Positions 9,642-63,557 of a stretch of 64,000 nt of DNA are shown one piece after another. The notes under the pieces were generated by a model, which was given only the letters and a program-made list of their open reading frames with translations, was not told where the DNA came from and ran no database searches. The stretch lies in NCBI GenBank assembly GCA_020241865.1, contig GCA_020241865.1_4709.1. The stretch is one strand, 5' to 3'. Made by a program: the position numbers and the translations under genes. The first letter of the stretch is position 1. Each line of letters opens with the position of its first letter. Source of the stretch: a phage.

Positions 9642-9684
9642 CATAACCCTCCTCCAACCCGTCAGGGAAGGAGGAGGGAATATG
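9642..9684. terminator. GC-rich palindromic intergenic hairpin (family member) between convergent genes
   Basis: CATAACCCTCCTCCAACCC-GTCA-GGGAAGGAGGAGGGAATATG; arms covary relative to copy at 1365. Confidence 0.6.
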
Positions 9685-9687
9685 CTG

Positions 9688-12600
9688 TTATCTTACGTTA
9701 TTGCTGTTCTGCTGTTCGCTGAACCAACCATACACCTTGAGATCGGTACCGTATTTCAACGCGATATACGCATTCAGCGCAGCACAGAACAAAGACGCGA
9801 ATGCCCATATCAGCGAAGGATCAACATCTTCCGTTACCATTGGGAGAGTATTATCCGGTTCCCATGATGGAGAACTGTCCATGAACGTTGCGTACCATCC
9901 CCGCCGTTGTTCTTCGGTGGTAAAGTCGCTATGGGGTTCCAATGCTTCTTTTGCCAGACGTCGATATTCGAACATATGCGTTGCTAAAGCCGATGAGTTA
10001 CCAGATTCGCCTTCATAGTTCGGATCCACCGCATAACAGAGTTCTGTGGAATCTAACAAAGCAACCGCCTGTGTGATGTTGTCGGCAGTGCCTGCACCAT
10101 AGAGCTCGATAGACCGCGAAAGCTTTTCACAGAACGCATTTAACGCGGAAGGATTGGACACCTGAAGGTCAAGGCCTAATGTCCACGGATAGTTACTGAA
10201 TACGCCCGTAAACCGCGGCATAACACCCAACAGATGTTGTCCGATTACAGCACGGTTATAAACAGCCCGGTTATAGACTTGAAACGCAGCCTCCAAAGCT
10301 TGGTTATAATGACGACGAAGTTCGTCACGCGAGTTGCGGAATCTGTTTGCCGCAAGACTTGTGGCTGCGACGCTACAAACATCGTAATTGGTGGACGAGA
10401 GCACAGTTTCGTTAAGATCGAACGATTCCTGTTTCAACGATCCGCTAACCGCTGCTGCTTCGCTGTTTGCTTTATCGACAACAGTACTCAAAGCGTTGAT
10501 GTAACGTTTAGCTCGGACTTCCAGCCATTGTGCGATACCGAGAATATCCACCGCGGCTTTAGCAAGATCGCGTGCATTCACGATTTCGTTCTTCAACGCC
10601 CCTAAACCTTTATTTTCAGGCGTTGAGGCTTGTTGACGAATCATACTGTTCAACATGGTAAGCAGATTATCCAACTCATGTCCGCTGACCTTGTTGCGCG
10701 CATCGGTAATCGGCCCTTGCAGGAATTTACGACAACCGTCATTATACCGAATCAGTTTATCCACGTCGATGGATTCGTTCGTGGTTTCCTTGAACTGATT
10801 CTTTAATTCTTCACGGTAGTCGTGTATCTCGCTTGTAAGATTATCAACGGTGATACCATTGTGACCAAGAAGAACTTTACTGAAGTTGCCCTTCTCGAAC
10901 GCCAGTGCGATGTCTTCACGAATCTTAGCCAGTTTATCCTGATCTAATTCACGACCGTTTGACAGTTCTTTCACTTCAGCACTGATTATTGCTGCAACCG
11001 TTCCAAGGTTATCGGTAACCCCTTTGAACGTGCTTGACCAAACACTTCCCGCTTCAGCGTATTTTGCGATGGTCTGGATACCGACGCTATGTAACGACGC
11101 TAAACGTTTCTTCGTACCTTCGGTAAGCAATGCATCTTTAGCTCGCGTAAGTTGACTGTTATTGGCTTCCGCTTGCTGGATGGCCGCTTTCGCATTCCCG
11201 TTACGCCAGCTCTTAACCAACCAATCGACCAAACGTTTCAGGATGTTGATGGTATATTCCATCGTACGTCGTAACGTTTCCCATGCGCTTTCAGCGGTAT
11301 AGATCCCACCAACAGTGTACCCTTCCATCTTCAGCGCTTTGGTATCGGTTTGACGTGCCAACCATTCTACCGTCGCAGAACAAACGTTTACGAACGCCTC
11401 CAGGTAGTTGTAATAGGCCTCTGTTGCGGAGGTTTCGTTGAGCTTCGAATGCAGATAAAACTGTTCGTATAGCTCGTCGTCATCACCGAAGGCGTCGTAG
11501 TTCCACAGTTCGGTATCGCAGCCGGTACCACAGAAGACATCCGCCGTTGTAAACTCCTTAAGTGCTTTCGTTGCGTCGTTGGTCAGGAATTTACCTGTCT
11601 CAAGTACGTCGTCAACATTAAGTCTCGGGAGTTCGTCAGTAATTGGGTTTTCCAGCATCAACGTATTGAAGAACACGCTGTACTTGTATCCAAGCCATTT
11701 TGGATAACTGTTTTCAGATATCGTAGACGCCGGTTTGATTTTCTTGGCTTCAGCCAACGTGTCTTCTGCAACCTGATATTGGTTTTCCCCAGCTTTGATA
11801 CGTCGTAATGCTTTTTCTTCCAACTGTTTGAGTTTGGTGTGCCGTGCTTGAGCTGGAGCCTCAACCAGTTTTTGTACCGACCGCATGGCGGAAATCGCTT
11901 CTTTCAATGTGGTGATCGGCATACGAACTTTACCGTCATCGAAACTCAGCGCGCGAGCAATACGTCGACTTACAACAGGTTCGGTATGGATGTTTCTTTC
12001 TACCCACGATTTGTTTGCGTAGGTTTGCGTGATTTGCTGCTGGATCTTTTCAAGATAGCCCCAGCTTTTGGATGCTTTGCCGTCCAAAAGCGGATTAGGT
12101 CCTTTCTTATCAAAAAGCTTTTTGATAGGATCAAAGAAACCTTCTTGCACGAGATCGATACGGGTGTAACCATCAGCTGCTTCGATTTCTTCTTGGGTTT
12201 TATCCCAGAAGTCGTCGCTCTTTGCAGCAACCGCTGTATCTTTAATGTCCAGGATGATCTGACCCACCGTTTGCGCAAACAGCAAGGCCGCACGTACCGA
12301 TTGTGCGAACATCCGCTGATATTTGATTCGAACGCATTGCATCTGGGTTAGCAGATTCAGTTGCGCGATCCCATCCAAGGTGCTATCTTGAGCAAGTCCT
12401 TCAGCCTTAGCGATAACCTGTTTTACACGTTCAGCGACATCAACGTATTGCTGGCATACATCCCGCAGAATACGTGCTGCGAAGACCCCGGTACCGATAT
12501 AGTTCAACAGGTCTTTTAATGACCATTCAGACGGACAATCGGCTGGTGCGGTAGGGAGTAAGCAACCATCACCGTCCATGAATCGCTCTAATGCACTAAT

Positions 12601-18137: not shown

Positions 18138-19889
18138 ATGAGCGAACAAGAACGAAAACCTAAGAAGAAACTGCTCGGTATTCAATGTCGACACATCAGC
18201 TATAACGAAGCGAACGATGGCAGCAAGAACGACCTCATGATCGCAAAAGAGATCATGTTCTTCGATGATAATACGCAAGCGACGAACCTTCGCTTCTTCG
18301 AGAATTACAAACGTCCGTTTTGGGTGACGGTAGAGAGTAAACGTAAGAACAAATATAAAAAGGAAAGCGAGAAGCTCTCGCATGTGCGTCGCTACGATGT
18401 CCGCCAAAGCGAACTGGTTGAAAAGATCAGCTCGGTACTTTATAAAAGACGTGCTGACGATAACACCCGTTTACAGCAGCTTGCACGGAGTCCATACCTC
18501 TATGGAACGGACGTTAGCGCCAGCTGTTATTTAAAAACCCAGTACAACACAAAATGGCCGGAATACGTCGATAAATTACCCGCTTCCATTGCCTGTTTCG
18601 ATATCGAAACCGACGTTGTCCACGGACACGGTAAGATCGTTTGTATGTCTATTACAATGGGATACAATGCGATACTTTGCTATACCAAGGACTTCGTTGG
18701 TCATATTCCGAATGCCATTGAGAAAACCCATGAGAAGATTCGATATTACCTGGCCGAACGTCTGAATACCAAAGAAGATCCCCACGCATTCGAAAAATAT
18801 CAGTACGATGTTCGAATCGTAGAAAGCCCGGCACAAGCGGTCATCCAATGCATGCAGAAGGTTCACGAATGGCAGCCGGATTATCTCCTTGGCTGGAATA
18901 TCGCGTTCGATATTCCGCGCATGCTCCAGGCACTGAACGAGGAAGGGTATCGTCCCGAGGATGTTTTCTCCGATCCCCGTATACCACCTAAATATCGTAT
19001 TGCTCGCTGGGTACCACCGAAGACCGACAAGGTATCTGCTTCAGGTCGTAAAACCAACCTTACCCTTGAGCAAACCTGGCCGATGTTTTATACGATGGCT
19101 ACGTATCAGGTTATGGATGCGATGTGTGGCTATAAGTTCGTTCGTTTAGGAAGACCGGATGAAGGACGCTATTCACTCGATGCGGTGTTAGAGCGAAATA
19201 AATGCCATACGAAATTAAAAGCTATTCCTGGTACAGAGGGGTTCACGGAGCTTGCCTGGCACGAAGAGATGCAAACGAACCATCAAATCGACTACGGCGT
19301 ATATAACCTTTGGGATAACCAGGGTATTGAGGCGTTGGACCAGAAAACAAAAGACTATTCGATGACCATCCCTATCCGTTTAGCGGCGTCGGATTTGAAA
19401 GATTTCAGTTCTAACCCTAAACGTATCTGCGATAAACTTTTCTTCGTTTATCTTAACCGTGGGGAAGTCATGGGATGTACCGCTGACGACATGACCCAGG
19501 AAGAAGATAAGTGGGTTATCTCACGAGCTGGACATATCGTCACATTACCATGCGATCTCATGGCTGACAACGGCATTCATCTCTTCTGGGATATGCCGAA
19601 CCTGAGAAGTTATATCCGTCTATTCGTTGCAGACCTTGACATTAGCAGTTCATACCCGAATGGGCAGATCCTGTTGAATCTATCCAGAGCGTGTGTTTTT
19701 CGCGAGCTCTCACGCATTGAGGGCGTCTCTGACTATCAATTCAGGAAGTTAGGTATCAACTTTATTACCGGAGGTAAAACGAACGCTGTAGACTTCTGTA
19801 GAATCGTTTATAAAGCACCATCGATGTTTGAACTTTTAGAACATTTCGATGCAACGCGTCCAAAAGAGGAAGCGCGGACCATCGAATGA
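18138..19889 (+). CDS. DEDDy-type 3'-5' exonuclease domain protein, likely N-terminal part of a split family-B DNA polymerase
   Basis: Exo I (FDIETD), Exo II (GWNIAFD) and Exo III (YSLDAVLE) motifs in canonical order and spacing; motif-A-like DLDISSSYP near C-terminus; ORF ends before motifs B and C. Confidence 0.7.
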   Translation: MSEQERKPKKKLLGIQCRHISYNEANDGSKNDLMIAKEIMFFDDNTQATNLRFFENYKRPFWVTVESKRKNKYKKESEKLSHVRRYDVRQSELVEKISSVLYKRRADDNTRLQQLARSPYLYGTDVSASCYLKTQYNTKWPEYVDKLPASIACFDIETDVVHGHGKIVCMSITMGYNAILCYTKDFVGHIPNAIEKTHEKIRYYLAERLNTKEDPHAFEKYQYDVRIVESPAQAVIQCMQKVHEWQPDYLLGWNIAFDIPRMLQALNEEGYRPEDVFSDPRIPPKYRIARWVPPKTDKVSASGRKTNLTLEQTWPMFYTMATYQVMDAMCGYKFVRLGRPDEGRYSLDAVLERNKCHTKLKAIPGTEGFTELAWHEEMQTNHQIDYGVYNLWDNQGIEALDQKTKDYSMTIPIRLAASDLKDFSSNPKRICDKLFFVYLNRGEVMGCTADDMTQEEDKWVISRAGHIVTLPCDLMADNGIHLFWDMPNLRSYIRLFVADLDISSSYPNGQILLNLSRACVFRELSRIEGVSDYQFRKLGINFITGGKTNAVDFCRIVYKAPSMFELLEHFDATRPKEEARTIE

Positions 19890-19937: not shown

Positions 19938-19969
19938 CCCCTCCCCCTGGCGGAAGCCGGAGGGAGGGG
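19938..19969. terminator. GC-rich hairpin between convergent genes (polymerase/exonuclease gene and small-gene array)
   Basis: CCCCTCCCCCTGGC-GGAA-GCCGGAGGGAGGGG, 14-bp stem with one mismatch. Confidence 0.6.
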
Positions 19970-19975
19970 TGAGGT

Positions 19976-21044: not shown

Positions 21045-21443
21045 TTATGCTTCGCAATCAGCTGAAGGCGTCGCGCCTTTCTTACCAGCGATACGCCAAA
21101 TCCGACACGCTGGGTAATGGTTAACCTCTAGAGAGCAAGGAATGTTATATTTCTCTTCCAGCGCATAAAGACATTTCGTTAGCTGCTCCAGCGCGTTCTC
21201 GTCGTGTCGTAACGCGTGGTGGCCTAATCGATGTTGGTCGTTCTTTATATACGCCTCGAAGAGAACATGTTGGCGATGTACGCTGACGTTTACAGCCTCG
21301 AGTATAGCTTGGTCGAGCATACGACTAAAGCACATCAACGAGTCAGATACGTTTTCTCGCTTAACCAGATCGATCATGGCGGGAATATACGAATGGTCGA
21401 TGTTATCGATGACCGCTTTAGCGACGGAATCAGCAACGTTCAT
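21045..21443 (-). CDS. small hypothetical protein (132 aa), tandem paralog of 21481..21876
   Basis: shared blocks AKAVIDNIDH and EEKYNIPxSLEVN with neighbouring gene. Confidence 0.75.
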   Translation of the reverse strand: MNVADSVAKAVIDNIDHSYIPAMIDLVKRENVSDSLMCFSRMLDQAILEAVNVSVHRQHVLFEAYIKNDQHRLGHHALRHDENALEQLTKCLYALEEKYNIPCSLEVNHYPACRIWRIAGKKGATPSADCEA

Positions 21444-21480
21444 CTTTTTTAATCCCTAGTTTGTTATTGATCACGTATAT

Positions 21481-21876
21481 TTACTCTTTGACGTCAGTTG
21501 TCGTTTCGACATGCTTCTCACTACTGACGTACCAGAGCAGGTACGCTGGGAAAAGATTGACCTCTAAGCTAAATGGGATATTGTATTTCTCTTCCATTTT
21601 ACAGAGATGTTCTTTAAGTAAATTTCTCGCGTCTCTGTCACCACGAACAGAGTGCCAGTCTAGTTCTTTGTTCTCCTTTACCAGGACCTCTACGATGATA
21701 CGTTGCTCGTGAACCTCGGTTTTCACAGTGAAAAGTAAATCGCTGCTATCCAAACGGGTAAAACGAATGTATGAACCAGGTGTTTTTTCTTGTTTAATAA
21801 TATCGATCATGGTAGAAATGCGCGGATGATCGATGTTGTCGTTAACAGCTTTAACGATGGATTCTACAATGCTCAT
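21481..21876 (-). CDS. small hypothetical protein (131 aa), tandem paralog of 21045..21443
   Basis: shared blocks with neighbouring gene. Confidence 0.75.
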   Translation of the reverse strand: MSIVESIVKAVNDNIDHPRISTMIDIIKQEKTPGSYIRFTRLDSSDLLFTVKTEVHEQRIIVEVLVKENKELDWHSVRGDRDARNLLKEHLCKMEEKYNIPFSLEVNLFPAYLLWYVSSEKHVETTTDVKE

Positions 21877-21908
21877 TTTTTATCCTTAATGTTATCGATT
21901 TGGAAATA

Positions 21909-22676
21909 TTACTTATTTTTGCTTTCTTTATAGACAGTTGTTACCCACGATGGGAAAGCCGGATGGAAACAGAGCGTGAACGTAACTGTCGTATCGTATT
22001 TAAACGCACAGTTCACTAACCGGGTATCTAACGTTTTCCTTAATCCGTCATCATCGTTATCGATGATGGTCATATCTCTTAATATCCCAAGCACGTTAAC
22101 GCCATCGGGTGTCTGGGTTACGACAAGTCGTCGTAATGGCCCGCATGTATAGTCACGTACAAATCCTTTCTTCGGGTCCGATACCCTGTTTAACGCATCG
22201 TGATTTTTGATGAATTCATCGGCGATACAATAGGTTTGCTCCCTTGCTTTATCGGGATCGTATTCTGCTAATAGTTCCTTCGTGTCGAATGTTATCGCGT
22301 TATTAGCATTCGATTCAGAAGGGAAACATAAAACTAAACGAACAGGGTATTCATATTGATCTGTTCTCGTTTCGAAAGCATTAGCTAAACACGGCTTGTA
22401 TGCCTTTGCGTCGACATTGTCCAAACACGGATGCAATAATGCGTGAATAACGGCACCATCGTCAGTTAAACCGAATTCCAGAAATTGTGTTTCATCGACA
22501 TCCGTGACGGTTTTCTGAAGATACGCTTTACCGTTAACGATATCGGTATCCCACATATCGTCGTTTAACGATTCTTCAAACTTATCGAATATATGGTTTA
22601 CGAAATTGATGAGTTCATCAATACGACACTGTTGGTTGAATTCGATTAATCGTTGAACTTTATCTCTGATAGACAT
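21909..22676 (-). CDS. hypothetical protein (255 aa)
   Basis: ORF in small-gene array. Confidence 0.7.
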   Translation of the reverse strand: MSIRDKVQRLIEFNQQCRIDELINFVNHIFDKFEESLNDDMWDTDIVNGKAYLQKTVTDVDETQFLEFGLTDDGAVIHALLHPCLDNVDAKAYKPCLANAFETRTDQYEYPVRLVLCFPSESNANNAITFDTKELLAEYDPDKAREQTYCIADEFIKNHDALNRVSDPKKGFVRDYTCGPLRRLVVTQTPDGVNVLGILRDMTIIDNDDDGLRKTLDTRLVNCAFKYDTTVTFTLCFHPAFPSWVTTVYKESKNK

Positions 22677-22678
22677 GA

Positions 22679-23143
22679 TTACTCCTTAGTTCCTTCTTCG
22701 TTGGACGTATATTCCACATAGTGGAATTCACGGCCGTCGATAAACTTGAGTGCTACTGTAATAGGGAAATCACACGGCATAGCGGATTTCGTAAATGCGT
22801 TATCAGCAACATCAGATAACCGACGTATGGTATTCTCCCCTTTTGCTATGAATGGGAATTTAATGTTAATAAGGATACGGTGTTTGTAAATAGTAAAGAC
22901 GACAGTGCTGTCGAAATGTACCCCAGTTAAAGTCATTGTTGGGATACGTTTTACAACGGAGAAATGTGTCCCGTCAATATCGCTACTTCCCACTGACCAT
23001 TCATCGGAATTGCGTAGACTTTTCTTGAGGATATCAACGCTTTGCGTGACCACCTCAGCAACTTGTACGACGTACGTGTCTTTATGCATGTCGAAAAGTT
23101 CGTTGACGTTAGATTTGAATGAATAAACCGTTGCCATTATCAT
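22679..23143 (-). CDS. small hypothetical protein (154 aa)
   Basis: ORF; acidic C-terminus resembles neighbours. Confidence 0.65.
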   Translation of the reverse strand: MIMATVYSFKSNVNELFDMHKDTYVVQVAEVVTQSVDILKKSLRNSDEWSVGSSDIDGTHFSVVKRIPTMTLTGVHFDSTVVFTIYKHRILINIKFPFIAKGENTIRRLSDVADNAFTKSAMPCDFPITVALKFIDGREFHYVEYTSNEEGTKE

Positions 23144-24859: not shown

Positions 24860-24887
24860 AAAAAAAAAAGGTGGGGCGAACCCCACC
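24860..24887 (-). terminator. rho-independent terminator (hairpin followed by U10 on minus strand)
   Basis: plus strand A10 then GGTGGGG-CGAA-CCCCACC; on minus strand stem-loop followed by T10. Confidence 0.65.
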
Positions 24888-24912: not shown

Positions 24913-25338
24913 TTAATTCAGTGATGCATATAAGGCATAACGACTGTAGATCTCAACCGCCGGTCCGTTATGCGTTAACAGACCGTCTCGGCTGTAATAC
25001 TGGAAAAATGAATAACGTTTGTCGAAGTGATAAACAAAAGCAATGTCTTTGCCGTCAAAACCTGTGATGCGTGGTCTGTTTTTATCTAGCAATGCTTTGA
25101 CTTTTAACAGTGTTGCCGCACGTGCTTTAACGTTAGGGATCAAGCCATCACAATCGATATAAACAGTGTAACCTGTTTCAGATGTTGCGACGGTCGTATT
25201 GCGATTGACGCGGAAGATTTTTGTTTCGTATGTACTATCTTCAAGAATTGGGTTTTGTTTTTCGTATTTTCGTTTACGCAGAAATTCTACAACGGTGATA
25301 TAGTTAGCGGTAATATGCCCGGTTATAGCTTGTAACAT
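24913..25338 (-). CDS. small hypothetical protein (141 aa) behind conserved promoter/leader cassette
   Basis: ORF flanked by conserved upstream cassette (25335-25444) and downstream hairpin plus T10 terminator. Confidence 0.7.
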   Translation of the reverse strand: MLQAITGHITANYITVVEFLRKRKYEKQNPILEDSTYETKIFRVNRNTTVATSETGYTVYIDCDGLIPNVKARAATLLKVKALLDKNRPRITGFDGKDIAFVYHFDKRYSFFQYYSRDGLLTHNGPAVEIYSRYALYASLN

Positions 25339-25444
25339 CTTGACATCCTTTTATATTGGATTGGTTGCAATTGTCTTAAATAGATGATAAGATATTTTGC
25401 TCTTATCACTAAGGTAATGTAGTCGCGAAATAAACTGCGTTAAC
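25335..25444 (-). promoter_or_regulatory. conserved promoter/leader/RBS cassette, copy A (upstream of 24913..25338)
   Basis: 29-nt identity (ACATCTTGACATCCTTTTATATTGGATTG) plus ~37-nt block at ~70% identity shared with 53506..53612; leader hairpin GATAAGA...TCTTATC between blocks. Confidence 0.55.
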
Positions 25445-25460
25445 ACGAAATAAAAAACAG

Positions 25461-25510
25461 CATAGAACCCTCCTCCCACATCCTTCAAGAGGACGGTGGG
25501 AAGAGGGAGA
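25461..25510 (-). terminator. GC-rich palindromic hairpin (family member)
   Basis: CATAGAACCCTCCTCCCAC...GTGGGAAGAGGGAGAG downstream of 25513..25914. Confidence 0.5.
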
Positions 25511-32143: not shown

Positions 32144-32186
32144 CATAACCCTCTCCCTTCCCTGCTGGGTTGGGAGAGGGCTTATG
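32144..32186. terminator. GC-rich palindromic hairpin (family member, reverse orientation) between convergent genes
   Basis: CATAACCCTCTCCCTTCCC-TGCT-GGGTTGGGAGAGGGCTTATG = reverse complement of the 1365 copy apart from loop. Confidence 0.6.
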
Positions 32187-36449: not shown

Positions 36450-36547
36450 AGTGTTGTCCTATACTGCGATGATTGAGATATCGGATGCCGGATGTGTGTT
36501 GCCATCAGGTGGTACGTACAGAAACACCCACAGATAAAACAGTAGCT

Positions 36548-36578
36548 TATCTAACTTCAATTAAATTGAAGTTAGATA
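36548..36578 (-). terminator. perfect 15-bp inverted repeat (1-nt spacer), AT-rich hairpin overlapping stop codon of 36561..37277
   Basis: TATCTAACTTCAATT-A-AATTGAAGTTAGATA; followed on minus strand by U-rich sequence. Confidence 0.45.
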
Positions 36579-37277
36579 TTGTTTACCTCCAACAAACGAC
36601 GTTAACCAATTACCTGAAACAAGTTGCGATGCCCAGCCAGGCACTGCCCTACCGTTCTGGCTCATCACGTTACCTGCCCATCCCGGAAAACCAGGTCGGA
36701 AAATATATACTTGAATATGTGTTAAAGCGTTATCATTACCACCGCCAACAGCAACGTTACGACTCCCAGATGACGGGAAATATTCTTTTAAGAACAGAGG
36801 ATCGGTTGCTAATAAAGATGCGGGCCAAGGGTTCGCAGATGCATCAACATCGAATTCGGTCCATCGCCATTTACGTCCCGTGTCGAACCATGTCGATGTA
36901 CCACCACCCCTCACGACAAGATTGCGCGCATCATGGACATTATAAATTGATTCGATGTTACGCCATCCACCTTTTGCAGCGTTTGCTGCATAGCAAACCG
37001 CATTACCACCATTCTTCTTCTCGTAAACGGTTCGTTTGATATGAACACGGTCGATGAACGCTTCACCGTATTTGTTGACGAGCGTTTGTGCGATATCACG
37101 AAGATCGTGCATGTGAAAAGCGATGTCTTCGTTATGGAACCATGTTGTCTGGTTCCAGACGGTACCGTTTGGTTCGGCACACATCGATCGGATATTGTTG
37201 CGTTGATTAATCGCGATAAAACCCATTGTATACCTCGTTCCTATTCTCAAAAAGGAAATTTCATACGATGACGCCAT
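36561..37277 (-). CDS. hypothetical protein (~238 aa), paralog of 35808..36449
   Basis: ORF 36561..37313; N-terminal 12 codons of track ORF translate the GC hairpin; ATG 37277 has AGGAGG RBS. Confidence 0.7.
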   Translation of the reverse strand: MASSYEISFLRIGTRYTMGFIAINQRNNIRSMCAEPNGTVWNQTTWFHNEDIAFHMHDLRDIAQTLVNKYGEAFIDRVHIKRTVYEKKNGGNAVCYAANAAKGGWRNIESIYNVHDARNLVVRGGGTSTWFDTGRKWRWTEFDVDASANPWPASLLATDPLFLKEYFPSSGSRNVAVGGGNDNALTHIQVYIFRPGFPGWAGNVMSQNGRAVPGWASQLVSGNWLTSFVGGKQYLTSI

Positions 37278-37314
37278 AGCAGCTCCTCCTTCCCTTACGG
37301 GTTGGAGGAGCATA
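37275..37314 (-). terminator. GC-rich palindromic hairpin (family member, reverse orientation) containing the AGGAGG RBS of 36561..37277
   Basis: CTCCTCCTTCCC-TTAC-GGGTTGGAGGAG. Confidence 0.55.
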
Positions 37315-42039: not shown

Positions 42040-42093
42040 CATATTACCCCCCCCCCCCTCGCTTCGTCGAGGTAGGGGAGGATAACACTTTAT
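42040..42093 (-). terminator. degenerate family-like hairpin containing a C12 homopolymer
   Basis: CATATTA-C12-TCG-CTTCGT-CGAGGTAGGGGAGG...TTTATG downstream of 42090..43844 stop. Confidence 0.35.
42047..42058. repeat. C12 homopolymer tract (intergenic)
   Basis: 12 consecutive C between 41933 start and 42090 stop. Confidence 0.7.
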
Positions 42094-43844
42094 GCCGCTA
42101 CATACCCAGGCCAACGTTCTCTTGGCCAGTTTGTTGCGCCCTGTCCAACGTTGTCCTTACCAGAAGTTACATTACTTACGTCCCAACCACTAAGATCCTG
42201 GTTAAATGCGGTGTTGTTGCGCATCATGAGGTCGATCCTACGTAACGATTGGGTATTCCAGCCGGAAATGTCTTGGTTGAATGCCGCGTTGTAAGCAAAC
42301 ATGTTAACAACGTCTTGTAATTTTGAAGTGTTCCAGCCGCTTATATCGCTATTGAACCGCATGTTCGAGAACATACTGCTAGCGTTGACAAGACTACCTG
42401 TTTTCCAGTTAACCAGCTTGTCCCCATCAAGTGCATAGCAGCTACTGAACATGTAACTCATGTCGTTAACTTTGGATACATCCCATTTATCTAACCCGTT
42501 ACCAACGAACTTGCGACAATCTTGGAACATCGAGCTCATATCGGTAACCTGGCTCACATTCCATTTGCTAAAGTCGAGGTTGAGGTTTGTGCATCCGGAG
42601 AAGGTTTGATACATACTGGTGATACGACTAACATCCCATTCTTGAATGTTAGGATCATTAAGTATAGATAAGAATTTGAACAATTCGTCTAACGACGTCC
42701 ATTTCTCTGGGATACGGTTTGGTACGGTACGGAGTGATAAAAGGTAACTGGTTGACGGAGAGCGGAACATACCGTTATCCCAATTTACGATTTCTGTAAT
42801 GTTGGACCCACGGATCGTTTGGCGTCCGTTACCATTATACACAGACCCTGTTGCAGTTATTGTATATTCGTTTGTATCAGCATACGTATATTCAGCCTGT
42901 GTAGGCCACTCACCTATTACATCCCTATTCCCATCGCCCCAATCAATGGAAATATCTATCCAACCATCAAGATCTAGGGTAACGGTCCCGCCATTGGTCT
43001 TCAGGACGTATTTACCTGCATTGTCGGTATAATAACAAACAATCATCGCACCGTACAGGTTACCAATTTGCCAATCATCCTTTTGAGTTACCGCGATATG
43101 TGCTGTGCCACGTTGTAGGAAAAGAACCGTACGGTTCTCGTCAGTCTGTAATGTGGTTAATGCTTGAGCCTTATCATCGTCGGTAATTTCACCAGCTTCC
43201 ACTAAAGCACTTAACATTCTTTCGAAGTATTCGATGGGTAATTGGCGTCCTACAGACATATCAACTGATGGAACAGCGAGATCATCCAATGCGGCGGCAG
43301 TTGCAAGCACTAATGATCCATTGGTGGTGTCTGTTTCTTGGAGGTAATGCAGTCCCGTAATCTGGTACGCTTGAATGATTGTAATCAGATCCAGCGTATC
43401 GTTAATGACCTGTACTTGTAAATGTCCAGACCAAACATAGCTGCTTTCAGCAATCGGTAATTCGACCGACTGAATACCCGATGTTTCAAAACTGATCTTC
43501 TTATTAAGATCGGCTTCCAGGAAATCAACCGCGAGGTCGAAATTTATACCGTACTTTTCAGCGATGGAATCTATGATGTTCCTGAAAGCAACATCGGTAC
43601 TTACGATGAATCGTAAAGGGATTCCTGTGAACGCATTAGCAATATCTCGACGAACATACGTAAGTGATTGTTCGAAGAAATAGGGACTGTTATCTCCAGG
43701 TTTGATGGTTACCTGACACATTTCAGGATGTTCAGCTGGGATGAACGATTCAAATTTAACATCGGATTCCTTCAACGAAAGCATGTTCTTCCGGTTTACC
43801 AGCGCCAGAAGATCGGCTTTCCATCCAGGATAAACAGTAGACAT
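42090..43844 (-). CDS. tail fibre/receptor-binding protein (~584 aa): shared N-terminal anchor domain plus C-terminal DUF285-like repeats
   Basis: N-terminus paralogous to 33173..35785; C-terminal repeats FxxCxxF...WDVSKV/ISGWNTS/LSGWDVSNVT; ATG 43844 with GGAG RBS. Confidence 0.75.
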   Translation of the reverse strand: MSTVYPGWKADLLALVNRKNMLSLKESDVKFESFIPAEHPEMCQVTIKPGDNSPYFFEQSLTYVRRDIANAFTGIPLRFIVSTDVAFRNIIDSIAEKYGINFDLAVDFLEADLNKKISFETSGIQSVELPIAESSYVWSGHLQVQVINDTLDLITIIQAYQITGLHYLQETDTTNGSLVLATAAALDDLAVPSVDMSVGRQLPIEYFERMLSALVEAGEITDDDKAQALTTLQTDENRTVLFLQRGTAHIAVTQKDDWQIGNLYGAMIVCYYTDNAGKYVLKTNGGTVTLDLDGWIDISIDWGDGNRDVIGEWPTQAEYTYADTNEYTITATGSVYNGNGRQTIRGSNITEIVNWDNGMFRSPSTSYLLSLRTVPNRIPEKWTSLDELFKFLSILNDPNIQEWDVSRITSMYQTFSGCTNLNLDFSKWNVSQVTDMSSMFQDCRKFVGNGLDKWDVSKVNDMSYMFSSCYALDGDKLVNWKTGSLVNASSMFSNMRFNSDISGWNTSKLQDVVNMFAYNAAFNQDISGWNTQSLRRIDLMMRNNTAFNQDLSGWDVSNVTSGKDNVGQGATNWPRERWPGYVAA

Positions 43845-43859
43845 AAGCACTCCAATCAT

Positions 43860-49035: not shown

Positions 49036-49781
49036 TCGTCAATATCTCCTTCCACAAACAGAGTCAATTTGATTTCAGGATCATAGAACATGGTAATCAC
49101 ATCATCTTGCTCTACTGAACGCTGTGCTGTCCATATTAACTGTTCATCCCGAATATCAAATTTATGTCGTTCGTCACTCACCACAGCTTCCGCATCAACG
49201 TAATGGTAAACATCACCGAGAGGATTCTCAATCCAGCCGCGTACCATCAAACGTTCTTTTTGTTTACGTGTAAAGAAGCGATAGGGATCTTCGCACGTGC
49301 GCCATACGTCCCCCTTCTCGCTAACCAGTTCATCATAAACTTTAGAGAGTTCGTCAGGCACCGGAATCAAAATGTTATCTTGATAGTTCGACCAGAAACG
49401 ACGTACGTCTTGGATCAACTCATCGTCTGGGAGTTTAGTCGCTATGTTACTATAATCGATTTCAACAGTATCGATATCAAGACGGGTAAACGGAAGAGCG
49501 TCTAGGTTTCCCACCATGACCTCGATCTGATCATGATGGACACGAATCCATCCATCGAACCATCTGTACCCATCAGCTTGATATAACGTTGTGTGATAAG
49601 TGACGACGTTAATATCCTCGAACGATTCTAATAAGGCTTTAGCGGCTAAAAGCGGTGAAAAGTTCTTCGATTGTCCTGGTTTACGTATTTCTTCTTTGAT
49701 AAACAATTTACCGAGCAGTGGGTGTTCGATAACAAAACCACAGGAAAGCATGATGCTTCCTTGATAACGTGCTTCTTGCAT
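49032..49781 (-). CDS. hypothetical protein (249 aa)
   Basis: ORF with ATGA overlap to downstream gene. Confidence 0.7.
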   Translation of the reverse strand: MQEARYQGSIMLSCGFVIEHPLLGKLFIKEEIRKPGQSKNFSPLLAAKALLESFEDINVVTYHTTLYQADGYRWFDGWIRVHHDQIEVMVGNLDALPFTRLDIDTVEIDYSNIATKLPDDELIQDVRRFWSNYQDNILIPVPDELSKVYDELVSEKGDVWRTCEDPYRFFTRKQKERLMVRGWIENPLGDVYHYVDAEAVVSDERHKFDIRDEQLIWTAQRSVEQDDVITMFYDPEIKLTLFVEGDIDE

Positions 49782-53139: not shown

Positions 53140-53188
53140 TCCTTATTGAAATAAAATCGGTATAAAGGCCCCCCCATTTAGGGGGACC
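53140..53188 (-). terminator. putative intrinsic terminator downstream of 53192..53509
   Basis: C7...G5 hairpin followed on minus strand by U-rich tract. Confidence 0.4.
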
Positions 53189-53191
53189 TGA

Positions 53192-53509
53192 TTAGTTTGC
53201 ACGTAAGAAATGACCTAGAACCGTTACAATTGGAAACAGTCCTGTAACCGTATTATCACCCGAAAACATCATCTTTGAGTCGTTAACGGTGATGAAACGG
53301 ATGTCGGTTGCGGATCCGTCGATAGCGACAAAACGCATTGAGTTCGGTGGAAGATCCTCAACAACTTCCACGAGGTGTTCACGATTTTCAAAGGCTTCTT
53401 TAACACGACGCATGAAACGAATCAATGTTCCTTCAGCGTCGGCTTCCAAATGACCTAAGATATCGCGATTATTGCGAATAGCGAATACAGACATTTTAAA
53501 CATACACAT
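53192..53509 (-). CDS. small hypothetical protein (105 aa) behind second copy of conserved promoter/leader cassette
   Basis: ATG context identical over 29 nt to that of 24913..25338. Confidence 0.65.
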   Translation of the reverse strand: MCMFKMSVFAIRNNRDILGHLEADAEGTLIRFMRRVKEAFENREHLVEVVEDLPPNSMRFVAIDGSATDIRFITVNDSKMMFSGDNTVTGLFPIVTVLGHFLRAN

Positions 53510-53612
53510 CTTGACATCCTTTTATATTGGATTGATTGCTAATAGTTCAAGGTGAAGCTGATTACTGCATTGCTTCACCTAGGTAATATAGCCGTGAAAA
53601 TTAATGCATTAA
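53506..53612 (-). promoter_or_regulatory. conserved promoter/leader/RBS cassette, copy B (upstream of 53192..53509)
   Basis: same blocks as copy A; contains 12-bp palindrome TTAATGCATTAA, TATATT -10-like hexamer, leader hairpin AGGTGAAG...CTTCACCT. Confidence 0.55.
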
Positions 53613-53617
53613 TTTAT

Positions 53618-54571
53618 TCACGACTTCGCCATGTAGGGTTGAATCGCATGGAAGCGTTTAACCACAACTTCAGGAAAAAGTTTGATGATTTCATCAGGCG
53701 GTGCTGCACCTTCTGTCCAACGATAGCGTTCAACCTTCTCGATGCGTGGACTCCCTCCGACGTCAGCGATACGAAAGATACAGGCGATGCCTAAATCAAA
53801 ACACACGCTGTAAATATCTTCCGTGCCTCCTTTATCAGCAAGTATTTTCGCAAAATGCTCGTTATCAGGAAGAATGGCTAAATTACGTATACGCCAAACA
53901 TTATTACCCATTTCTTCAAGGATTGGGTATGTTAAAGTGTGTCCGTGTCGTGTTAACCATCGATGATTTTCGAGGTAGAAGTCCTTATCCCCTGGCCGGT
54001 AACCCATAATCACTCCCGTGTAGAAGAGATTGGGCATATCGAGCAGTTCTTGAATCGTTGGGCCGGTATACTCCCAGAGACAGATTTGTTTGCGGTCTAT
54101 ATCGTAATCTGTGACGTTACTCACCTCCCAACTTATCGTAAGTTCGTCGATAACATGCCAACCTAAAGTGTGTTCGCAACAAAATAGATTAACAATGGCT
54201 GATATCTCATACTTGTCAAATACCCCCAAATTACACGGTGGTTGCATCGTACGTAACGGCTCCCATAACGCACTGTAATCATAGAGCAAGTGCCGACACA
54301 AACTTTTTGTTAGTGGTGTCTGTTCAGTAAACAGTGGAAGAATCACCTTATCCAATAACAGACGTAACGGATGGTCGTCTGGTGGTAGAGGAGCAACTAG
54401 ACGACCTCCTTCTTTAGGGTAATCAAGGCCAAACCCGTAACGCTCCGAAATGAGTGCAATCAACACTTTTGCTACGCGATTACGTAGCATGCGATGGATA
54501 TCATCACTGTAACTGAATTTCGGTTTATTTCCGCAAACGAAGGTGAAGTATCTAGGTGATAGCTTAACCAT
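53618..54571 (-). CDS. hypothetical protein (~318 aa)
   Basis: ORF 53618..54643; internal ATG 54571 with AAGGA RBS removes overlap with upstream gene. Confidence 0.65.
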   Translation of the reverse strand: MVKLSPRYFTFVCGNKPKFSYSDDIHRMLRNRVAKVLIALISERYGFGLDYPKEGGRLVAPLPPDDHPLRLLLDKVILPLFTEQTPLTKSLCRHLLYDYSALWEPLRTMQPPCNLGVFDKYEISAIVNLFCCEHTLGWHVIDELTISWEVSNVTDYDIDRKQICLWEYTGPTIQELLDMPNLFYTGVIMGYRPGDKDFYLENHRWLTRHGHTLTYPILEEMGNNVWRIRNLAILPDNEHFAKILADKGGTEDIYSVCFDLGIACIFRIADVGGSPRIEKVERYRWTEGAAPPDEIIKLFPEVVVKRFHAIQPYMAKS

Positions 54572-58452: not shown

Positions 58453-58955
58453 GCTAAAATTCCCTCATTACCTAACAGTCGATTACGGTGACGTCGGTAC
58501 ATTTGACAAAGTGTTGTGATTTGATAAAGTTTGTTATAACGTAATTCGATACGTTTTTGCACCTCTTTCCATGAAAGTTTATCATATTGCCGATAACGAT
58601 GGATTTCATTCAACATCCGAAGACGCGTAGGATCGGTATTCTTTATTGTTACGAGCTTCACGCGTTGGTATCCGCGCTGCAACCCCGATTCAGAATACGT
58701 AATGCCGAACTCATCCTGAATGATAGTAATGATCTCCCGCCATCGGCGCTTCTCGCCGTCACGTAAATGGACAACCCGCGATAAGATATCGTTCCGATTA
58801 CGATGACTCAGTTTAATGTTAAGCATTGAAGCAATCGCGCTAATTGCTCTCTGACTCCGCCCTAACGCCTCACCGATCTCTTTCGATGTCATGACGCCAG
58901 CGTTTCGACGTATGAATGCGATTTCGGTTGTTGTGTATTCTTTACCTGCCGCCAT
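58449..58955 (-). CDS. HTH DNA-binding protein, member 1 of six-gene paralog array
   Basis: YTTTEIAFIRRNAGVMTSKEIGEALGRSQRAI HTH repeat plus two WxEIxxxIxxEF...Y...LxQxY repeats; overlaps upstream paralog. Confidence 0.65.
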   Translation of the reverse strand: MAAGKEYTTTEIAFIRRNAGVMTSKEIGEALGRSQRAISAIASMLNIKLSHRNRNDILSRVVHLRDGEKRRWREIITIIQDEFGITYSESGLQRGYQRVKLVTIKNTDPTRLRMLNEIHRYRQYDKLSWKEVQKRIELRYNKLYQITTLCQMYRRHRNRLLGNEGILA

Positions 58956-59503
58956 TTCTTACCACGCGTGTTATAATAGTAACGTTGACAAAGATGTGTG
59001 TGATGGTACTCCCGTTTGAACTCGACATTGATAATGCGAGCAACTTCTCTCCAGCTAACCCCTTCATGTCGAAGTGTCGTGATACGGTCTGAAATTTTGC
59101 ACCATTCACCAGGATCGTATCGTCGCAGTTTATGACGTCGTATTACGGAGGCGACGCTCGCTTTCGAGCGACCAAGATGATTCGACATTCGTTTAATCGA
59201 GTATCTATGGATATTATCGCGAATATAGGAAAGCTCGTTGTCTGTATACGTCGCGTTGGTTCTCGGCGAAGGGAACAATACGTATAACTTATTCTTAATC
59301 GCGCTTTCTGTGCGTTGAAACACGGTAACCAGTTCACTAATCGATGGTCTAGGTATTTGATACGCGTAATTCTCGAGGCGTGAGAGTTCCTCATCTGTCC
59401 AGCGGCGGTATTTGCGCATGGGCAACTCCTTTGTTTTTCGTGTAATAACACCAACGTTGATACAACGCATGTTTATTCGTTGTAATCCCAAATTTAACAA
59501 CAA
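58889..59503 (-). CDS. Myb/SANT-like HTH protein, paralog 2 (true start probably near 59422)
   Basis: RWTDEELSRLENY (Myb-like), YTDNELSYIRDN...LGRSKASV, WREVARIINVEF...LCQRYYY. Confidence 0.65.
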   Translation of the reverse strand: MLLNLGLQRINMRCINVGVITRKTKELPMRKYRRWTDEELSRLENYAYQIPRPSISELVTVFQRTESAIKNKLYVLFPSPRTNATYTDNELSYIRDNIHRYSIKRMSNHLGRSKASVASVIRRHKLRRYDPGEWCKISDRITTLRHEGVSWREVARIINVEFKREYHHTHLCQRYYYNTRGKKWRQVKNTQQPKSHSYVETLAS

Positions 59504-59894
59504 CGTCGTATGTGATAATATTCCAATTTTGGGTGACGTTAAGTCGTTCCGCGATAAACGCGATAATCGCTTCCCGTTCTTGCTTGGTTAACGCACGACG
59601 AATTCCATTAAGCCGTATAAACTGACGAACCGAGTCATACGAACGGTTTAAATCATACGCAATCTCCCTCAGCGATTTTTGTTTGATTACGGACTTGATG
59701 TACGCACGTTCTTCTTCCGTATACGGTCGATGCTTCTGGCGTTGACGTATTCCCAAACGCCCCAGACACGCGTCGATGCTGGCGTATGTTCGTCCTGTCC
59801 GTTGTGCGATTTCATCAATCGTCAGCGGCGTGTTCAAGTACATGTGTGTAACATCTTTTAACTCATCGTTACGCCACGGCCGAGGTCGTCGCAT
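59391..59894 (-). CDS. Myb/SANT-like HTH protein, paralog 3
   Basis: three-repeat architecture shared with neighbours. Confidence 0.7.
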   Translation of the reverse strand: MRRPRPWRNDELKDVTHMYLNTPLTIDEIAQRTGRTYASIDACLGRLGIRQRQKHRPYTEEERAYIKSVIKQKSLREIAYDLNRSYDSVRQFIRLNGIRRALTKQEREAIIAFIAERLNVTQNWNIITYDVVVKFGITTNKHALYQRWCYYTKNKGVAHAQIPPLDR

Positions 59895-60372
59895 CTTGTA
59901 TCCCTCTTTTCTTTCTATGATGCCACCAACGCTGATAAACAGCTTGCTTCGTCCGTGTTATGCCAAAATGCGCATTAACCCGTTCAGCAATGTGGTACCA
60001 ATCCTGCGTTTCTTCTAACAATGCATCAACGAAGGCTATGAAGATCTTAGTATCATCCTCGCTTAACCGCTTGAAGCCATGGCGGTGTGCTATTGTTCGA
60101 ATACTGTTTGGATCTCTGTTTAAATCGCGTGCGAGCTGTTTGTAACTTTTGTGCTTACAGTGTAGTCTGATATGTTCTAATTCATCGACGCTGAAACGTT
60201 TATGCGGTTTACGGCGTTCGACGTTTAAGTACCTCAACCTTGATTCGATTGCACCGTACGTCGTTTCCATGATTTCCGCGATTTCACGGATTTTTAATTT
60301 CGGGCGACGATCGTATAGTTTCAGCAACTGCTCATCGTACTTACGATTCCATCGTCGTACTGGGGGTTTCAC
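59869..60372 (-). CDS. Myb/SANT-like HTH protein, paralog 4
   Basis: three-repeat architecture shared with neighbours. Confidence 0.7.
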   Translation of the reverse strand: MKPPVRRWNRKYDEQLLKLYDRRPKLKIREIAEIMETTYGAIESRLRYLNVERRKPHKRFSVDELEHIRLHCKHKSYKQLARDLNRDPNSIRTIAHRHGFKRLSEDDTKIFIAFVDALLEETQDWYHIAERVNAHFGITRTKQAVYQRWWHHRKKRGIQDATTSAVA

Positions 60373-60374
60373 AA

Positions 60375-60854
60375 CTAGATTTCTCCTGTTCTACGCGTTT
60401 TTAATGCTTGAGTGTAGTAAAGGGTATGAACACCGCTTAACGTGTAATGGGTGTTAAATTCGTTATTGATGATATTCTGTATTCTCTCCCAGGTTTTCTT
60501 CTCTTTTCTAAGAGTATGTATTCGGTGATAGATCATCTCTCGACGTTGCGCTTTGCACGCGATAATACCGTAGCGGTAGCAGAGTTTAGCGATCGCATCC
60601 ACGCTACGATTGAACATTACCGCGGCTTCTTTCACGCTGTGCGTCTTGAGATAATCGGCTAACATCACGCGTTCTTCGAAACAACAATAGCGGTGACGCG
60701 ACGTGAGTTTCCAGCGCTTGCGATTACGGTTAATTCGACCTTGAACCGAACCTTCCGTTCGGCCAAGTCGTACCGCAATCTCTTGCATCGGTATACCGTT
60801 TCGGTACAGGGTAATCAACATCGCATCTTCTTCGGGTGTCCAGTCCTTGACCAT
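60375..60854 (-). CDS. Myb/SANT-like HTH protein, paralog 5
   Basis: WTPEEDAMLITLYRNGIPMQEIAVRLGRTEGSVQGR is a close match to a Myb repeat. Confidence 0.7.
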   Translation of the reverse strand: MVKDWTPEEDAMLITLYRNGIPMQEIAVRLGRTEGSVQGRINRNRKRWKLTSRHRYCCFEERVMLADYLKTHSVKEAAVMFNRSVDAIAKLCYRYGIIACKAQRREMIYHRIHTLRKEKKTWERIQNIINNEFNTHYTLSGVHTLYYTQALKTRRTGEI

Positions 60855-60866
60855 AATGCCACCCCA

Positions 60867-63557
<2,691 letters not shown>

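Follow-up and report, generated by a model that had tools for sequence, protein, structure and literature searches.

Two unrelated small genes on the minus strand of the window, a 64,000-nt stretch of phage DNA (GenBank assembly GCA_020241865.1, contig GCA_020241865.1_4709.1), share, around their starts, almost the same ~34 nt, a block that holds the Shine-Dalgarno (SD) sequence and the start codon. Sequence comparisons indicated that this initiation block is shared in fact and functionally constrained. The explanation that we consider probable is that the genes, here called A and B, form two immediate-early units of a Goslar-like chimallivirus in which an ancestral initiation leader, common to both units, is held under purifying selection, and that the promoter and hairpin found upstream of each block are traits of a wider family. 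The promoter and hairpin are common to ~12 other early units, and only the initiation region is homologous between A and B.

The exact part of the block, the 29-mer CAATCCAATATAAAAGGATGTCAAGATGT, occurred exactly twice in the window, at 25335-25363 (-) and 53506-53534 (-). A chance origin of this repeat was ruled out, as 0 of 100 shuffles gave any match to it. Similarity between the two copies continued 5 nt further upstream (GCAAyCAATCC...), reaching 34 nt with 1 mismatch. Within each copy, a 7-nt spacer separates the SD AAGGA from the ATG of one of the two open reading frames (ORFs), 24913-25338 (-) and 53192-53509 (-). The blocks and their genes are as follows.

25335-25368, minus strand: shared initiation block, copy A, reading GCAAC-CAATCCAATATAAAAGGATGTCAAG-ATG-T, with an A/U-rich upstream part, the SD AAGGA(UGU), a 7-nt spacer and the start codon.
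53506-53539, minus strand: shared initiation block, copy B, with the exact 29-mer repeat.
24913-25338, minus strand: ORF A, 141 aa; its orthologue, Goslar_00075, is annotated as hypothetical, and it is an ORFan confined to Goslar-like phages.
53192-53509, minus strand: ORF B, 105 aa; its orthologue, Goslar_00105, is annotated as hypothetical, and it is an ORFan confined to Goslar-like phages.

The original prediction had reported a 29-nt identity that ran through the start codon into the first nucleotide of codon 2. The identity, the presence of two copies and the inclusion of the SD and ATG all stood, but the codon-2 base appears to be incidental and peculiar to the window phage, as Goslar gene B reads ATG AGT and another relative reads ATG GGT.

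Over a test kilobase, identity between the window and Escherichia phage vB_EcoM_Goslar (MK327938) was 96.6%. Goslar forms a nucleus, is a jumbo phage of the Chimalliviridae and serves as the E. coli model chimallivirus; the window was collinear with it from ~62 to 125 kb. Gene order and the ~27-kb spacing of A and B were identical in the window, Goslar and UViG11560. The two proteins had been described as unrelated cargo, and we likewise found no similarity between them; neither matched a Pfam or PHROG family, and homologues of both were found in Goslar-like phages only. The AlphaFold model of protein A was a confident alpha/beta structure (predicted local distance difference test, pLDDT, 81) for which a structural neighbour search gave no significant fold match, and the model of protein B was unreliable and unusable (pLDDT 44). 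The most variable part of protein A was its N-terminal ~25 residues, which directly adjoin the invariant block.

No third copy of the block was found in Goslar even when 4-7 mismatches were allowed. It was the sole repeat of the initiation-region type in that genome, all of the other long Goslar repeats being terminator-family hairpins, early promoters or tail-fibre coding repeats, and only the ~34-nt initiation block was specific to the A-B pair. A search of relatives, for which copies were gathered from IMG/VR, metagenomes and isolate assemblies, recovered orthologous copies in ~15 Goslar-like genomes in all. Many isolate assemblies of E. coli (O157 included), Salmonella and Shigella also had Goslar-like contigs of ~236-250 kb, in keeping with a preprint whose subject is the persistence of virulent phages in bacterial isolates. 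No block-related sequence was found in other phage genera, and no Rfam 15 family reached its gathering threshold for the block or leader, for which only sub-threshold chance matches were returned. Mimicry of an E. coli leader was rejected, since nothing better than E = 10 matches was obtained in 5,426 genomes.

Across the genomes compared, 2 of 28 block sites were segregating in copy A (9 genomes) and 1 of 28 in copy B (8 genomes). The pooled count of 3/56 was significantly lower than that for third-codon positions (81/244; p = 5e-6) and for the adjacent untranslated region (UTR; 21/90, p = 0.005), and neighbouring genes of these genomes had 3-15 of 28 segregating sites in their initiation regions, as against 1-2 of 28 for the block. 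Within the Goslar-proper clade, the 28-mer varied only at position 13 (A/G, at both loci) and position 22 (A/G, at locus A only). The block was kept in relatives L026 and L028 despite a diverged linker and diverged N-terminal codons of gene A, and in relative L029, from which the promoter and hairpin were absent; its first 20 nt preceded an ORF only 55% identical in relative L025. Copy B of a deeper clade (clade 2) read CAATCCAACACAAGAGGATGCTAGG, with 5 differences from the canonical sequence, and copy A of the same clade was canonical; these A and B copies came from different samples of the same protein clusters and were not paired within a genome. One lineage (L030) had a diverged copy A, and copy A of ERZ28623650 scaffold_5 read CAATCCATTGTAAAGGGATGAAGAAAT. 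Three features were invariant in every copy, diverged ones included, namely AAUCAAUCC, a constant 9-nt A-rich spacer and GGAUG. At position 13, G was the majority state across genomes and is probably ancestral.

The two copies could also have been kept identical by ectopic gene conversion, that is, by concerted evolution and not by selection. This idea was prompted by UViG11560, in which, as in ERZ1026852, both copies carried AAGAGGA, while AAAAGGA was present in both copies in the window, Goslar and OGZS genomes. We regard it as highly improbable, because the copies varied separately in several respects. The copies of ERZ1643250 differed at position 13, copy A having A and copy B having G, and this site toggled independently in L028 and was homoplasious; the GTCG variant was found in copy A only; and the free position immediately 5' of the block differed between the copies in every genome. 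The homology tract, furthermore, was short, with just ~13-14 nt flanking the variable site on either side, and the clade-2 copies differed at 5 positions. Unpaired data suggest that the A and B copies differ within ABJYRT010000006.1, ABUDGX010000009.1 and ERZ28623650 scaffold_5 as well. As the deeper-clade copies drift apart independently, ongoing homogenisation was unsupported.

A different reading of the same conservation is that the block is an mRNA operator for a trans-acting post-transcriptional regulator (a T4 RegA-like repressor, host CsrA, or pairing with ribosomal RNA (rRNA)) that would co-control two immediate-early proteins. Conservation of AAUCAAUCC, GGAUG and the constant spacer in all copies reaches well past the SD and AUG, only two genes have the block, and position 13 agreed between the two copies in 5 of 6 genomes, all of which would suit a regulator. 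The translational operators of the T4 RegA type are sequences that overlap the SD and AUG. The candidate block resembles them as an SD/AUG-overlapping sequence common to mRNAs of unrelated early genes, but it has two targets only, its length and the exactness of its conservation go far beyond those of RegA sites, and its regulator is hypothetical. No Rfam family supported such an element at threshold, and copy B of clade 2 differed at 5 positions while its copy A stayed canonical. We consider an operator of this kind distinctly improbable.

The individual candidates for such a factor fared as follows. The sequence AUAAAAGGAUGU matched the CsrA consensus RUACARGGAUGU, obtained by systematic evolution of ligands by exponential enrichment (SELEX), at 11 of 12 positions; the genome-wide count of CsrA-like sites, however, equalled that expected from shuffles, and AAGAGGA, the commoner variant, was a poorer match to the consensus. 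A CsrA site appears unlikely. The sequence AGGAUGUCAAGA (25338-25349 and 53509-53520 of the window, both (-)) is complementary over 12 nt, with no mismatch, to E. coli 16S rRNA UCUUGACAUCCU at ~988-999 (rrsB), with a shuffle p of ~0.015-0.035. This complementarity is genuine, but it was one of ~6 post hoc tests and was lost in the diverged copies of L025, L030 and L033; it is probably a coincidence, and rRNA pairing was not favoured. A phage-encoded antisense or small RNA partner was rejected, as no complementary partner beyond chance was found in the Goslar genome, where the longest run (13, including G-U pairs) lay within the 13-16 seen in shuffled targets. A switch in which the 3' arm of the 5' hairpin (see below) would pair with the initiation region was not conserved: it reached z ~ -2.7 only in the window/Goslar subclade of A, was absent from the other A orthologues and from all B copies, and was rejected. 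No link turned up between the block and the helix-turn-helix (HTH) paralogues that had been suggested as possible binding factors, although no search aimed at protein regulators was made. Those paralogues are presumably the 4-5 small paralogous proteins (~106-176 aa) encoded at ~58.9-61.3 kb of the window (ORFs 58889-61337, minus strand) and at 2239-4034 of L031, which gave only faint HTH, Sigma70_r4 or Myb-like Pfam hints.

Several observations nonetheless weigh against purifying selection on translation initiation as the explanation for the block. Such selection offers no obvious reason for the invariance, even in diverged copies, of AAUCAAUCC, which lies upstream of the SD, and it leaves unexplained why only 2 of ~13 early units have the block. 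The SD and AUG were largely paired in predicted equilibrium folds (unpaired probability 0.06-0.29), a state not expected of an initiation region that is simply strong. The agreement of the two copies at position 13 may hint at co-evolution, at a site that is itself homoplasious. Finally, the transcription start and the dependence on a virion RNA polymerase (RNAP), which are part of the immediate-early reading, rest on analogy.

Upstream of the initiation block, a second region of A-B similarity was found, containing TACATTAC in A and TATATTAC in B. Its two copies, scored with a position weight matrix (PWM), are predicted to be early promoters with a putative transcription start site (TSS).

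25402-25451, minus strand: predicted early promoter A, with a T-rich upstream part, TTTCGCGAC, the core TACATTAC at 25414-25421 and GTGA at 25406-25409 (putative TSS region); PWM score 47.4 bits.
53571-53620, minus strand: predicted early promoter B, with TTTTCACGGC, the core TATATTAC at 53583-53590 and GTGA at 53575-53578; PWM score 47.9 bits.

The sequence TAYATTACC occurred only twice in the window, and the extended motif formed a family across the whole Goslar genome. Using a matrix built from 8 strict Goslar sites and a strong-site cut-off of at least 33 bits, we found 13 sites in Goslar, all on the minus (transcribed) strand and all in intergenic gaps; shuffled genomes gave 0-3 matches at 10 bits or more. 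The family consensus comprises a T-rich tract, TTTCACGRC, TAYATTAC, N4 and (G)TGA, and both copies in the window had the T-rich/TTTCGCGAC/TTTCACGGC part upstream and N4-GTGA downstream. In Goslar, one family member is placed 80 nt ahead of the chmA (gp189) start codon. RNA sequencing of Goslar has placed early transcription inside the injection vesicle, and the chmA 'TSS sequence' was displayed from 91 nt upstream of the start codon, a coarse statement (10.1101/2023.09.20.558163) that is roughly consistent with the predicted site.

The ~37-nt second block of the original prediction was thus present, but it was not specific to the pair. Identity between promoters A and B over -30 to +17 was 60%, which ranked 29 among 78 family pairs (median 57%), and each copy had closer relatives elsewhere in the genome: promoter A was nearest to the Goslar 49732 site (79-83%) and promoter B to the Goslar 2567 and 166069 sites (77-81%). 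The resemblance is therefore that of family members and carries no pair-specific mark of duplication, and a duplication of the promoter specific to this pair was rejected. Alignment of the two regions yielded the 34-nt similarity at the ribosome-binding site (RBS) and only an ordinary, family-level similarity at the promoter. The TATATT/TACATT element had been described as -10-like. A scan for sigma-70-type promoters on the coding strand found none at either site, and TATATT was rejected as a sigma-70 -10 box, because that strand has no matching -35 and the motif is that of the family of phage early promoters.

Predicted early promoters have been tabulated (PMC7058600) for phiKZ (TATATTAC), 201phi2-1 (TTTRARR-BTATATTACDWHDGTG), EL (...CCTACATTATY) and OBP, and the Goslar motif matched those of all four phages. 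In phiKZ and 201phi2-1, differential RNA sequencing (dRNA-seq) and ONT-cappable-seq map an AT-rich box to ~10 bp before the TSS, preceded at a greater distance by a T-rich element. By analogy, the second block is a phiKZ-type early promoter that would be read by the virion RNAP, transcription would begin near the conserved GTGA, close to positions 25409 and 53578 of the window (86693 and 113785 of Goslar), and Goslar_00075 and Goslar_00105 are probably early ORFans transcribed by this polymerase. The Goslar sites are like phiKZ-type early promoters in their core, downstream GTG and T-rich upstream part, in having many co-oriented intergenic copies per genome, mostly before genes for hypothetical proteins, and in having one copy upstream of the early gene chmA. 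They are unlike them in that the Goslar clade has TTTCACGGC directly 5' of the core and TGA at +14 to +16, and in number, with ~13 strong copies in Goslar compared to 28-32 reported for phiKZ. A literature search turned up no published early-promoter motif for Goslar, for which a concrete and testable set of ~13 sites is now given. One of these, the 47.9-bit Goslar 49732 site upstream of Goslar_00046/47, has a 5' hairpin and lies inside the annotated Goslar_00047 ORF (49584-49772). Since an SD and an ATG follow ~70 nt downstream of this promoter, the annotated start is probably too far upstream.

Between promoter and block, each leader has a hairpin.

25381-25411, minus strand: predicted 5'-terminal stem-loop of leader A, UAGUGAUAAGA / UCUUAUCAuCUA; -10.1 kcal/mol, z = -3.5.
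53550-53580, minus strand: predicted 5'-terminal stem-loop of leader B, AGGUGAAGC / GCUUCACCU, with a 13-nt loop; -13.2 kcal/mol, z = -3.7.

These structures bear out the earlier description of leader hairpins at the same position with different sequences. The layout of the two units was likewise the same, each consisting of a promoter, a 5' hairpin, the shared RBS block and an ORFan. If transcription starts near GTGA, as the analogy suggests, the hairpins would sit at the very 5' end of the mRNAs. Stem A was kept in 11 orthologues with wobble-compatible changes only, and its 8-nt loop was wholly replaced in L007 and L024; among 7 distinct orthologues of leader B, the 9-bp stem was invariant and the 13-nt loop variable. 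A clear hairpin (z < -2) was present at or beside the GTGA element in 8 of the 13 promoter-family members. With stems kept, loops turning over and so many family members equipped in this way, the 5'-terminal stem-loop appears to be a selected but sequence-free trait of many early units. The duplicated ~100-bp cassette that had been proposed was therefore an overstatement, with ~34 nt specific to the pair, a promoter similar only at the level of its family and a hairpin of wider occurrence.

Terminal stem-loops at the 5' end stabilise bacterial and phage mRNAs, the ompA leader being an example, and on this general knowledge the leader hairpins may protect their mRNAs from decay that depends on the 5' end. 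Like ompA-type structures, they are stable hairpins in the first few nucleotides of the predicted transcript, with a conserved stem and a free loop; they differ from them in that both the stabilising function and the exact 5' end are putative here. Sequence changes around the hairpins were seen in several relatives. At promoter A, L013 (2868-2925), L021 and L028 had 2 different 40-52-nt insertions, each with 1-2 hairpins, directly after the TATATTAC core, and the downstream ACCTnnGTGA box was duplicated. One type of hairpin module was inserted in OGZS/L028 and another in UViG11560, which suggests that 5'-terminal stem-loops turn over by recombination at the promoter. At leader B, 15 nt of the hairpin (GCAGTAATCAGCTTC), in its loop and 3' arm, were duplicated in tandem in the metagenomic relatives L031 and L032 (~9860-9900).

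Further hairpins flank the two units.

24860-24887, minus strand: intrinsic terminator of unit A, GGTGGGG-TTCG-CCCCACC followed by T10; annotated as a terminator in Goslar.
53168-53188, minus strand: hairpin downstream of ORF B, GGTCCCCC-TAAAT-GGGGGGCC, read from the sequence; its U-tract is weak and its role as a terminator doubtful.
25468-25507, minus strand: terminator-family hairpin, CCCTCTTCCC...GGGAGGAGGG, which ends the upstream gene immediately 5' of promoter A and belongs to a genome-wide Goslar hairpin family.

Each gene had been said to be followed by a hairpin and U-run terminator, making two self-contained mono-cistronic units. For unit A this was borne out, as the hairpin at 24870-24887 (-) has a 7-bp stem with 6 GC pairs, is followed by T10 and qualifies as rho-independent. 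For unit B, a terminator scan reported no site; the hairpin at 53168-53188 is followed by UUUAUACC and falls short of a rho-independent terminator. Given its poor U-tract and its failure in the scan, a monocistronic B unit was not established. The hairpin family to which 25468-25507 belongs consists of near-palindromic GC-rich intergenic hairpins (CCCTCCTCC-AACCCGTAAGGGAA-GGAGGAGGG and variants), also seen in the window at 1372-1404, 9647-9678, 19939-19971, 32149-32180 and 37281-37312, and forms the longest exact repeats in Goslar, in many copies. These hairpins are probably conserved terminators and possibly bidirectional, and were likened to the shared terminator motif reported for phiKZ and 201phi2-1.

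The order of these parts, with a terminator-family hairpin (25468-25507) followed by promoter, hairpin, SD/ATG and ORFan, parallels that of the PeSLs (promoter-early stem-loop elements) of T4-type phages, which come nearest to it among published concepts. PeSLs consist of an AT-rich region, an early promoter, a stem-loop and an SD with the start codon at the 3' end, lie mostly upstream of ORFans and number ~50 per genome (Arbiol et al. 2010, PMC2839356; Comeau et al. 2014, PMC4122927). The terminator, the early promoter, the stem-loop and the SD/ATG could together act as a PeSL-like recombination module through which ORFans are swapped, inserted or deleted, with the block as the footprint of such an exchange. 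Some junctions in relatives fit this idea. The leader of L025 was nearly identical to Goslar copy A and was joined inside the SD-AUG spacer to the ORF of only 55% identity, L029 had the block without promoter or hairpin, and the two hairpin-module insertions of OGZS/L028 and UViG11560 lay directly after the promoter core. Moreover, an extra 151-aa ORF, absent from the window phage and Goslar, was present between the gp76 homologue and cassette A in L007 (3488-3943), L013 (~2330-2785) and L030 (2385-2840), and this indel borders on cassette A at the latter's terminator hairpin and promoter.

However, both cassettes lie inside long blocks of window-Goslar collinearity, none of the indels >500 bp between window and Goslar ends at an early promoter, and gene order and A-B spacing were unchanged in the window, Goslar and UViG11560. 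The ORF of L025 was homologous over its full length, so that fast N-terminal divergence explains its junction equally well. The likeness to PeSLs is thus in the composite of terminator or stem-loop, early promoter, SD and start codon before ORFans, and in some indels and junctions at the element in relatives. The differences are that the promoter is of the phage virion-RNAP type and not sigma-70-like at either locus, that the stem-loop would be at the 5' end of the transcript, that the shared element is the initiation region, at two loci only in place of ~50 per genome, and that recent shuffling was not seen between the window phage and Goslar. A PeSL-like module is in our judgement unlikely. 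The 'portable' character of the cassette, as originally proposed, is thus weakly supported by the L025, L029 and 151-aa ORF observations and opposed by the collinear blocks, with active mobility a possible property. The broader pair of options, that the block is a dedicated post-transcriptional element (an operator or an rRNA-pairing enhancer) coupling the translation of two immediate-early ORFans or that promoter-leader modules read by the virion polymerase act as PeSL-like recombination points, we consider rather improbable.

Under the reading that we favour, two immediate-early units with a common ancestral initiation leader, an injected virion RNAP would recognise a phiKZ-type early promoter composed of a T-rich tract, TTTCACGRC and TAYATTAC at about -10, and would begin transcription near the conserved GTGA. 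The ~30 nt that would open each mRNA form a stem-loop, with a putative role in protection from decay. Some 20 nt further on, an initiation region of 28-34 nt, comprising an A/U-rich segment, the SD AAGGAUGU, a 7-nt spacer and the AUG, would load host ribosomes onto two unrelated ORFan messages. This region most likely descends from one ancestral leader, through duplication or through recombination within the leader, and its near-invariance at both loci would result from purifying selection on translation initiation, for which copying between the loci is not needed.

Other differences between the window and Goslar were noted along the collinear region. In the DNA-polymerase region, Goslar has a 1.78-kb insertion at 81183-82966 that is lacking at 19630-19653 of the window and carries Goslar_00069, a gene for a NUMOD1/HNH endonuclease; a single 583-aa ORF (18138-19889) is found there in the window, compared to a 499-aa ORF followed by the endonuclease in Goslar. 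This looks like the presence or absence of an intron or homing endonuclease. Gene content also differed at 11305-12127, 21054-22720, 36499-37222 and 42051-43847 of the window and at 109591-110094 and 121395-122105 of Goslar. The extra segments of the window include ORFs 21045-22676, 36561-37313 and 42090-43859, and the window is without Goslar_00096 and Goslar_00120.

The two units are mostly known phage regulatory architecture and not a new type of mobile cassette. What is new is modest, namely further members of a known promoter family and an unusually conserved shared initiation region in which the constraint on AAUCAAUCC is unexplained; the rest is standard. Early ORFans transcribed by the virion RNAP, as the genes at these two loci probably are, are the class that is usually searched for host-takeover and anti-defence functions. 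The shared and constrained initiation region is a compact candidate part for early gene expression in jumbo-phage infection, and if a factor binds the block, it would be a minor case of translation being controlled in a coordinated way, in a phage that keeps transcription and translation apart.

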